A DNA stretch of 64,000 nt from Candidatus Spyradenecus sp. (GTDB taxonomy: Bacteria; Verrucomicrobiota; Verrucomicrobiia; Opitutales; UBA953): assembly GCA_045535075.1 (NCBI GenBank), contig JAZSKX010000005.1:1-64000 (forward strand). Direction: 5' to 3'. The position numbers were made by a program. Shown here one piece after another: positions 39,001 through 42,000 of the stretch (positions are counted from its first letter, which is position 1; each line of letters starts with the position of its first letter).

Positions 39001-42000
39001 CTTCAGAACCGATAATATCCGTGAGGACGACGTGTTTGACGATTTTTCCGTTTTCGTCGGGAAGCGTTACCAAGCCGCAGGAAATCCCGGCGACGGGAGC
39101 GCTGATCGGAACACCGGCATCCATGAGCGCGAGCGTGCCGCCGCAAACGGAAGCCATCGACGTCGAACCGTTCGACTCCATGATTTCGGAGGAGAGGCGA
39201 ATTGAGTACGGGAAATCCTCTTCGCTCGGAAGCACGGGAACGAGCGAGCGTTCCGCAAGTGCGCCGTGGCCGATTTCGCGGCGACCGGGCGAGCCGAATT
39301 TGCCGCATTCACCGACGGAGAACGGCGGGAAGTTGTAGTGCAAAATAAAGGTTTTCGACTTCGGACCGCCGGCGAGACCGTCGAGTTCCTGAGCATCTTT
39401 CGAGGTGCCGAGCGTCGCGATGACGAGCGCCTGCGTTTCACCGCGTTGGAAAAGTCCCGTTCCGTGAACGCTCGGAAGCACGTCCGTCTTGCAGGAAATC
39501 GGGCGAAGCTGGTCGAGCGAGCGACCGTCGGCTCGAACGCCTTTGTTCAAAATGCCTTCGCGATAAACTTTTTCCTGAAGTTCTTCAAACGCGATGTTGA
39601 CGTGGCGCGGGTCGATATTTTCTTCTCCGAGAGCCGCGATGACGGCTTCCTTGGCTTCCGCTTTAACCGCGCTGACGGCGTTCCCGCGTTCCTGTTTTCC
39701 CGGAAGATAAACGGCTTTCGCGAGCTTGTCGTCCGTATTCGCGATTTTTTCGCAGATTTCAAAAACTTTCGGATCGCAGATAACGAGCGGAAATTCCTTC
39801 TTCGGCTTGGCGACCTTTGCCGCGAGTTCGCGCTGAGCGGCAATGATTTTCTGAATCGCGTTCTGCGCAAATTCAAGCGCTTCGACGAAACGATCATCCG
39901 GCATTTGGTCGGCAGAGCCTTCGATCATCATCATGTCTTCTTCGTTGCCGACATAAACGAGGTCGAGCGTCGATTCGTCCATTTGCGCGTGAGTCGGATT
40001 GACGACGAATTCACCGTTGACTTCGCCGATGCGCACGCCGGCAATCGGGCCGTTCCACGGAATGTCGGAGCAAAGGAGCGCGGCGGAAGCGCCGTTGATC
40101 ATAAGCACGTCCGGATCGGTTACTTTGTCCGTCGCGAGCAACAGACCGATGACCTGCACTTCGTTCATGAAGCCTTTCGGGAAAAGCGGGCGAAGCGGGC
40201 GGTCCACCTGGCGGGAAGTCAAAATTTCCTTTTCGGACGGGCGACCTTCGCGCTTGAAGTAACCGCCCGGGAAACGTCCTGCTGCGGCAAATTTTTCGCG
40301 ATAATCAACGGTAAGCGGGAAAAAATCCTGGTCCGGGGAGCGCAGTTCGTTTGCCGCAGTTGCGGTAACGAGCACTTCCGTTCCGCCGACCGAAACGGTA
40401 ACGGCGCCGTTGGCTTGGCGGGCAATCGAGCCCGTGCTGATTGTGAGACCGTATTCTTCGATCGTCACGCTGTATTCTTGTTGCATATTGTTTTGTCTCT
40501 TTCTTGTGTTCCCGCGGGATTGCAGGAACGGGTTGTTTTTATTTTTGTACGAAAATCTTAGGGGAAAACGGAAAATCGCAGAAACGCGAGATACGAAAAA
40601 AAGCAAAAGAGCGTTCCCGTCAAAAAGTCGGGAACGCTCTTTTTCGTCGCACTATCGGCGAAGCCCGAGCTTCTGGATAATCGCTTCGTAAGCTTCGAGC
40701 TTATTCTTTTTGAGATAGTTGAGAAGCTTGCGGCGACGATTCGTCAGCGCGATCAGACCGTGGCGGCTGTGGAAGTCTTTCTTGTGCGTGCGGAGGTGCT
40801 CGGTAAGGTGAGCGATGCGCGCAGAAAGAAGAGCAATTTGAACTTCGGAAGAACCCGTGTCCTTATCGCTGAGTTTGTAGTTATTGATGATTTCGGATTT
40901 GTTGTACATAGCTTGTTGTTTTGTTTTCAGAGCTGAATGGCTTTCCCGAAGGGGAATTCCGCGTCCCGGACCCGAAAGTCTGAAGCGCCGTCTCACGGCA
41001 AAATTGCCGCAACTCCGGCTTCCCGAGGCTCACACCCCGAAAAACTTGACGAATTAGGGGGGCAATGATGAACTTTCCTATGCGTTCCCGCAAGGAAAAA
41101 CAGCAGCTCGCAGCACGGTAATTTCAAGCCTAAGCAATATCAATTCTCGTAAAAAACTTTGTCGGATTCACGATTATTTCTTTGAGTTTTCCGCAGCTTC
41201 GTCCGGGATTTTAAACGCCGTTCGGCAAAACGATTTTCGAGTTTAAACTTTCTCTTTAAAAAAAAGGTTTTATAATGGAGCTGTTCCACGGAACAGAATT
41301 CCGAAGAAAATCACTCCATAAACAGAAAGGATTCCCCCACTATGAAAAATATCTTAGTTTGCGTTGACGGATCGAATTACGGGCAAGTCTGCACGAGCTA
41401 CGCGGTTTGGCTGGCAAAAAAGACCGGTGCCAAAATTTCCGCGCTCTACGTTTCGGAGCTTTGGCAATACGAAACTCCGCTTATTGCGGATTTCGGCGGA
41501 GTCATCGGCACGCAACCTTACATGGGGCTAACGGCGCAGTTGCGGGAAGTCGAAGCCGGAAAAGCGAAAATAATCGAAACCTATGTTCGCGGAGAATTTG
41601 AAAAAGCGGGAATTCCCGACCAAGTGGAATTTTTCCACCGCTCCGGCTTGCTTGTCGATTGCATTGATGAGTTTGAAAATCAGCGCGGCGACATCAGCGC
41701 GATTATTCTCGGCAAGCGAGGCGAGCACGCAAATTTCGCCAAAGGGCATCTGGGCTCAAACATGGAGCGCGTCATTCGAGCCAGCAAGTTGCCCTGCTTT
41801 GTCGTTAACCGAAAGTTTATCGAACAGAAAAAGATTGTGCTCGCCTACGACGGAAGCCCGAGTGCAACGCGGGCGCTGGAATACCTTGCAACGCGCAAGG
41901 AGTTTATCGACCAGGAAGTCCATATCGTTACCGTCGCAAAACCGGGCGCCGAGGCCGACGCGACGCGCCTGCTTTTCGAAGCGGAAGCACGTCTGAAAGG

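Follow-up and report, generated by a model that had tools for sequence, protein, structure and literature searches.

A pseudoknotted four-way-junction leader upstream of rpsO in Opitutales, a candidate autogenous operator for ribosomal protein uS15

Leaders that bind ribosomal protein S15 are the standard case of one protein recognising unrelated RNA folds. The S15 site comprises a GU/GC motif about ten pairs, or one turn, from a second site at a junction; the motif is mimicked in the leaders of E. coli, Geobacillus and Rhizobium, and G-G substitutes for it in Thermus (accessible parts of PMC4684408). Excerpts of PMC4137082 describe alphaproteobacterial, actinobacterial and chlamydial leaders, and excerpts of PMC7247131 add S15 motifs from Flavobacteria and two archaeal groups. 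The four supplements of PMC4137082 name neither Verrucomicrobia nor Opitutales, and the available main text of PMC8632094, PMC5737381, PMC10085705 and PMC10931766 does not mention the Opitutales lineage. Nor does that of PMC11109978, whose 30 supplementary leader candidates may bear on novelty. Our literature searches, which most subscription papers lay beyond, returned nothing on an Opitutales S15 leader.

Here we describe an uncatalogued, order-wide S15-type leader with a new pseudoknotted four-way-junction architecture, outside the known structural families.

The rpsO leader and its covarying fold

We analysed a window of 64,000 nucleotides, the whole stretch of DNA studied here, from Candidatus Spyradenecus sp.; the nearest named relatives are Opitutales. 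The leader lies on the minus strand, 18 bases 5′ of the rpsO ATG (40909). At this place a first-pass annotation had described a closing stem and three hairpins with an extra 5′ hairpin, an arrangement that our analysis recovers; the coordinates it gave were 40928..41045, but the element starts at about 41052 instead of 41045. In the direction of transcription the features are:

41088..41093, minus strand: predicted −35 hexamer TTGCGG, from sequence
41065..41070, minus strand: predicted −10 hexamer CATCAT, from sequence, with a 17-base spacer; transcription would start near 41058-41055
41052, minus strand: U41052, with A40938 (the first base past P4) a less certain extension of the pseudoknot
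41048..41051, minus strand: pseudoknot 5′ strand CGUC, pairing with 40989-40992
41018..41045, minus strand: P0, 5′ hairpin adjoining P1; its first pair is G-C, with a conserved unpaired A before it
41010..41017, minus strand: P1 closing stem, 5′ strand
40996..41009, minus strand: P2 hairpin, variable in length and sequence
40989..40992, minus strand: pseudoknot 3′ strand GACG, directly 5′ of P3; holds the junction CG
40961..40988, minus strand: P3 hairpin, putative 16S helix 22 mimic; non-canonical A40981.C40968, then G40980-C40969
40939..40960, minus strand: P4 hairpin, immediately after P3, first pair G-C
40928..40935, minus strand: P1 closing stem, 3′ strand
40910..40927, minus strand: unpaired spacer of 18 bases before the start codon, A/C-rich and without a Shine-Dalgarno (SD) sequence
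40652..40909, minus strand: rpsO, encoding ribosomal protein uS15 of 85 aa, which is the probable ligand (TIGR00952, 118 bits, cut-off 64; solved S15 chains)
40605..40644, minus strand: terminator-like hairpin with U run in the rpsO-pnp gap (context), from sequence and seen in sub-threshold Rfam alignments
38261..40486, minus strand: pnp, polynucleotide phosphorylase, downstream of rpsO (context; TIGR03591 above cut-off)

The hairpin between rpsO and pnp is perfect, with A/U runs on both sides, and may be where the pnp message is processed; a terminator scan did not report it. A match to PNPase is present in 80 of 84 long Opitutales loci. Upstream of the leader and divergent from it lies a universal-stress-protein-like gene (41342-42196, plus strand; weak UspE match), and past pnp a 719-aa open reading frame (35940-38099, minus strand) that, judged from its sequence, has the look of an autotransporter-type outer-membrane protein. 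Rfam 15 has nothing on the leader, as the first-pass annotation had reported, and nothing in 20 related loci; its two sub-threshold matches fall on the rpsO-pnp hairpin.

We gathered 193 rpsO loci from genus, family, order, class and phylum sources, 146 in the order and 47 outside it; 132 of the 146 order leaders could be parsed and 14 could not. Covariation demonstrates the predicted helices P0–P4. The genus alignment (16 of 19 genus leaders) has 38 consensus pairs, 19 with two-sided changes; an earlier count had given 41 pairs, 14 of them compensatory, in 13 sequences. For the order we aligned 42 of the 132 parsed leaders with MAFFT, with no group giving more than two. Excluded were 14 rows that were redundant or parsed badly, long rows, and another 8 whose length was out of line. 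In this alignment 84% of cells are paired and 251 changes are two-sided; shuffled alignments give 69% and 89 (0 of 500). Sliding the structure along this alignment leaves 36-50% of cells paired, a lenient control because the structure was drawn from the same sequences. Single-strand folding of one leader per group gave z≤−2 in 27 of 36 group representatives, and constrained folding yielded the four-way junction in 112 of 132 leaders. The weak folding previously seen for this genome’s own strand (z −1) recurs at z = −1.75, yet the conserved fold, at −50.6, lies within 0.2 kcal/mol of the minimum of −50.8. P0 and P1 abut without a gap in 81 of 132 leaders, and their joint holds a second conserved cluster consisting of an unpaired A, a G-C pair, a C-G pair and the next A. 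Two genera of the genome’s own family (L111-L125, L027-L030, L127-L130) are a natural variant, with a few bases parting P0 from P1 and a longer AUG spacer (medians 29 and 27).

The first-pass annotation had noted a conserved CGG at the junction. Its CG is indeed conserved, but it is not free: it pairs with a 5′ strand lying beyond the boundary then drawn. Covariation shows that this predicted pseudoknot, of 3-4 bp, joins the 5′ end to the P2/P3 linker. The 5′ strand reads CG(U/C)N opposite N(A/G)CG, and pairs one and two are uninformative because they are nearly invariant. With anchors placed without use of the pseudoknot pairing, 127 of 132 leaders have a Watson-Crick pair three (U-A in 27 groups, C-G in 11), and at group level this pair reaches 0.94 against 0.58 ± 0.07 for shuffles; pair four is kept in 115 of the 132, G.U counted, and broken in 17. 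When 109 of the 146 leaders are aligned blind to pairing, with the own family thinned, the corresponding positions 41049-40991 rank fifth by MI-APC (U-A 68, C-G 26). The alignment of held-out matches is a fair test of the pseudoknot because the covariance model that produced it contains none: pair three is paired in 36 of 36 (U-A 28, C-G 6, U.G 2), and pair four is paired in 24 and broken in 12. On a tree of S15, all 11 changes of the pair-three 5′ base are shared with its partner, against a maximum of 6 for any of 26 control positions; this tree is built on 85 residues, and its well-supported branches hold just 3 independent contrasts (p 0.25). When the partner is slid by +3, 83% of cells still pair, but with zero two-sided changes.

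The base 5′ of the CG probably pairs with the base following P4. Pairs of this 41052/40938 type are Watson-Crick in 108 of 132 leaders (G-C 72, U-A 23, A-U 11) and share 16 of 21 changes on the tree; held-out matches have 28 G-C and 8 unpaired, with no two-sided change. We found no support for two further pairs of the 5′ strand past P4 (p 0.95 and 0.19) or for a fifth pseudoknot pair (p 0.48).

The P3 motif and the S15 protein

P3 carries, as judged from its sequence pattern, the mark that S15 reads on 16S helix 22. Of the 70 leaders whose P3 strands are of equal length, 37 have G.G and 31 have G.U as the ninth pair, and the other positions are 73-100% Watson-Crick; G.G occupies the motif pair in 41 of the 132 leaders overall. 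G.U or G.G followed by G-C is present in 68 of these 70 regular leaders and in 34 of 37 held-out matches. Because the parser demanded the G-C, we counted this pair on the held-out matches, in an alignment fitted to the model: the motif pair is G.U in 18 or G.G in 16, and the next pair is G-C in 36 of the 37. The genome studied here has A40981.C40968 in place of G.U, and five genus members have G.A; A.C pairs can adopt a G.U-like geometry. Helix 22 in four 16S genes from the genus has GG/CU, in the same orientation as the leader motif. If the pseudoknot is stacked under P3, its invariant pairs lie nine (G-C) and ten (C-G) pairs below the motif; in this genome the distances are eight and nine pairs.

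We numbered S15 residues by offset from solved S15 chains and took their roles from the available part of PMC4684408. T21, G22, Q27, H41, D48 and S51 are conserved in 140-146 of 146 Opitutales proteins, a conservation that rRNA binding alone would maintain. Residue 47 (40769-40771; loop 2), which sits between two residues reading the GU/GC motif, is His in 146 of 146 Opitutales proteins; most of the 47 other phylum members have Ser, Ala or Asn at this position.

Range, start region and candidate mode of action

A covariance model trained on 42 leaders finds a single copy of the element in each of 86 Opitutales genomes out of 121; many of these genomes gave training rows, and all 86 matches sit 10-48 bases 5′ of an rpsO match. 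The conservation across Opitutales proposed earlier thus extends to most of the genomes searched. The model matches 37 of 41 loci outside training; 21 of these had been inspected by eye beforehand, and 16 of the 20 unseen ones matched. In its own genome the element is the only match (E 1.8e-7), one that is absent under the stricter filters of the order- and class-wide searches. It is not a dispersed repeat, being single copy both by model and by blastn. Misses within the order are in part filter losses and in part real, namely the 14 of 146 leaders without a parse, which include those of small-genome families f35 and f36, of family f11, and of one genus with a different leader.

Beyond the order the model is silent at rpsO: it has no match there in 87 other genomes of the class and none at 60 rpsO loci beyond Opitutales. 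Its single class-wide match, a weak one (G295, E 0.005), lies in an unrelated open frame.

Some Opitutales appear to have lost or exchanged the element. In one genus of family f16 (L153, L188, L308) another conserved leader has seemingly replaced it, and we saw none in L191 or in eight genomes of about 1 Mb (L196, L201, L212, L283, L306, L282, L167, L305). Several of these carry a promoter-like motif near the start codon, as if the regulator had been lost in reduced genomes.

The 5′ strand of the pseudoknot is probably at the extreme start of the transcript. Across the 132 leaders YTTG[C/A] peaks 38-42 bases 5′ of the 5′ CG; 88 have a promoter-like match, and in 73 of these 88 the −10 element ends 8-13 bases 5′ of the CG, from which we derive this placement. 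A consensus promoter scan gave 0 sites, the candidate at 41093-41065 being too weak for it. Of 14 RNA runs, all available as contigs, four were examined; in two of these, contigs of relatives span a portion of the leader, but such contigs reveal no start, strand or level and form no part of the evidence.

At the other end of the leader, the spacer to the start codon is A/C-rich (1229 A and 619 C among 2376 bases), and an SD-like word occurs in 5 of 132 order leaders against 20 of 46 outside the order. The genome itself is SD-scarce (9.6% of 550 long open reading frames against a 5.8% background), and the accessible portion of PMC10783764 gives two Verrucomicrobia as SD-scarce. Of the 132 leaders, 85 have 14-20 bases between the end of P1 and the AUG, 33 have 21-33, and the other 14 folded irregularly. 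The AUG is unpaired in 88 of 132 single folds, and we found no conserved pairing between leader and start region (longest own match 4.9 against 4.7 ± 0.15 when swapped; 36 groups). Repression, if any, would therefore not act through occlusion of the start by pairing.

We consider it likely that the leader, with its pseudoknotted four-way-junction fold, is an autogenous translational operator for uS15. The first-pass annotation had proposed an S15 regulator; the helix 22-like motif, the single copy and the restriction to rpsO support that proposal, but its four-way-junction description was incomplete, the pseudoknot being missing. The pseudoknot helix would stack under P3, lengthening P3 to the size of 16S helix 22 and placing the motif about one turn (9-10 pairs) from the invariant CG:CG step at the pseudoknot/P3/P4 junction. 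Free S15 would contact the motif through loop-2 residues, with the junction as second site, and would thereby lock a pseudoknot too short for stability alone. The locked fold would end about 14-20 bases 5′ of the AUG, where the 30S footprint has its edge, and there the complex might hinder loading or trap 30S on the platform in the manner of E. coli rpsO (as described in parts of PMC8470358 and PMC10931766). Such a mechanism would not rely on hiding an SD sequence, which this genome largely lacks. We infer the stacking from connectivity and the S15 contacts from known S15 sites; repression and 30S entrapment are proposals. Against an operator stand the A.C at the motif of this genome, the G.A of five genus members, and two genera of its family whose AUG spacers (medians of 27-29 bases) fit poorly with simple occlusion.

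Other roles for the fold deserve weighing. It might mainly set how stable the rpsO-pnp message is or how it is processed, with the pseudoknot shielding the 5′ end from nucleases, possibly with PNPase feedback. The predicted position of the pseudoknot strand within a few bases of the transcription start and the frequency of the PNPase gene are in keeping with this. We nevertheless hold it to be unlikely as the main role, since it leaves a non-canonical pair and an invariant G-C at fixed distance unexplained and a terminator-like hairpin parts rpsO from pnp here; it is also compatible with S15 binding, and both may coexist. That the fold is a positive initiation element, recruiting or positioning 30S on an SD-less message, seems quite unlikely to us. 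The scarcity of SD-like words in leaders and genome and the conserved AUG spacing would suit such a role, and in M. smegmatis a broken rpsO pseudoknot also reduced expression (PMC8470358, in part), but the genome’s other SD-less genes have no model match, and the S15-type motif points to S15 as ligand.

A compact pseudoknotted fold might also bind another ribosomal protein (S6:S18 or S8) or, riboswitch-like, a small molecule, and the conserved P0/P1 cluster is unexplained by the S15 model. Few bases are invariant, however, the linkage to rpsO is strict, the motif fits the S15 site and no Rfam family matches; we regard another ligand as very unlikely. To a transcription attenuator we give next to no credence: the fold does lie between a predicted promoter and the gene, but P1 is not followed by a U run, the spacer is rich in A and C, a terminator scan of the leader found none, and validated S15 leaders all act at translation initiation, according to the accessible text of PMC10931766.

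Comparison with other rpsO leaders and known S15 sites

The candidate S15 operator of Opitutales has a possible counterpart in family f43, which belongs to another class of the same phylum. The f43 leader loci are:

L241, L259, L269, L270, L275, L278, L316-L325: about 100 bases 5′ of rpsO

By eye, most of these 16 leaders form one long hairpin, in which, as in Opitutales, ACG-G, six or seven pairs and G.U/G-C follow one another, but the CG finds its partner within the hairpin, beyond a bulge of one base. The hairpin loop is complementary to the start codon region: in 15 of 16 leaders the longest match, of 4-7 bases, takes in the AUG or the bases immediately after it, a count made with no shuffle control; one genome changes both sides of this loop/start pairing. 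The Opitutales model has no match on six f43 loci, and Rfam has none in the four scanned. The two leaders could be rewired versions of one ancestral S15-binding core, an idea that we hold tentatively and rather doubt: in Opitutales the 5′ end would provide the CG through a pseudoknot, and P4 would sit at the place of the f43 bulge. Shared ancestry and convergence on the S15 site may each account for the likeness, and the two are indistinguishable here. If rewiring did occur, S15 leaders that are usually regarded as independent in origin would be linked by a natural topological permutation, and the case would exemplify feedback repression without hiding an SD sequence or start codon. Outside the class, families f49 and f59 share a third conserved motif 5′ of rpsO (L253, L326, L243, L263, L327, L328), and f64 (L233, L238, L239) has a further conserved, apparently structured rpsO leader.

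The 16S helix 20/21/22 site and the Opitutales leader share GG/CU in the same orientation and a G-C nine stacked pairs below it, in a register of the rRNA mismatches and a numbering that we take to be correct. They differ in that the rRNA has its junction, of three helices, about 11 pairs from the motif, whereas the leader branches 8-9 pairs away and has more arms. Equating the pseudoknot helix with helix 20, which has similar RRCG/CGYY letters, may be considered, but it would place the GU/GC motif on the wrong arm. A literature search for structural detail on the rRNA triple found none.

Described leaders were compared through the accessible parts of their sources. The Geobacillus/Bacilli leader likewise has a multi-helix junction with GU/GC about one turn away, 5′ of rpsO (PMC3849166, PMC4684408), but its junction has three helices and its AUG lies in the helix 1 loop, whereas the Opitutales leader has five helices and a pseudoknot, all 5′ of the AUG. 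With E. coli rpsO it shares a pseudoknot and a GU/GC-type motif, and would share coaxially stacked stems and a second site; 30S entrapment is the proposed analogue. The E. coli knot, however, includes the start of the coding sequence, whereas that of Opitutales uses the 5′ end and excludes the AUG; and E. coli needs Arg57/58, where the matching residue of Opitutales S15 varies (Ala, Gln, Met). The Thermus thermophilus leader is also a junction mimic with a long stem and G-G for G.U; unlike the Opitutales leader it is a three-way junction that competes directly with the ribosome, with no pseudoknot described in the text at hand. Actinobacterial and mycobacterial leaders likewise have a pseudoknot 5′ of the start codon, needed for repression in M. 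smegmatis, but theirs is a kissing-loop or H-type knot with the SD in the 3′ helix, whereas the Opitutales leader lacks an SD and has another consensus; our model has no match at seven actinobacterial rpsO loci. Alphaproteobacteria and Chlamydia also have lineage-restricted rpsO leaders, but these are hairpins without the Opitutales junction or knot, and the short hairpin of the Chlamydia candidate overlaps the start codon, a pairing not seen in Opitutales. The S15-Flavobacteria, -Halobacteria and -Methanomicrobia motifs of Eckert and Weinberg were compared through their descriptions and the Rfam scan.

The functional class is thus already known, and what is new is the architecture. The Opitutales leader appears to unite the strategies of junction mimicry and pseudoknotting in one RNA, strongly covarying and order-wide. 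Its motif variants (G.U, G.G, A.C, G.A) and spacer lengths are natural tests of how S15 reads its site, and it offers a way to study autogenous repression where SD pairing is scarce.
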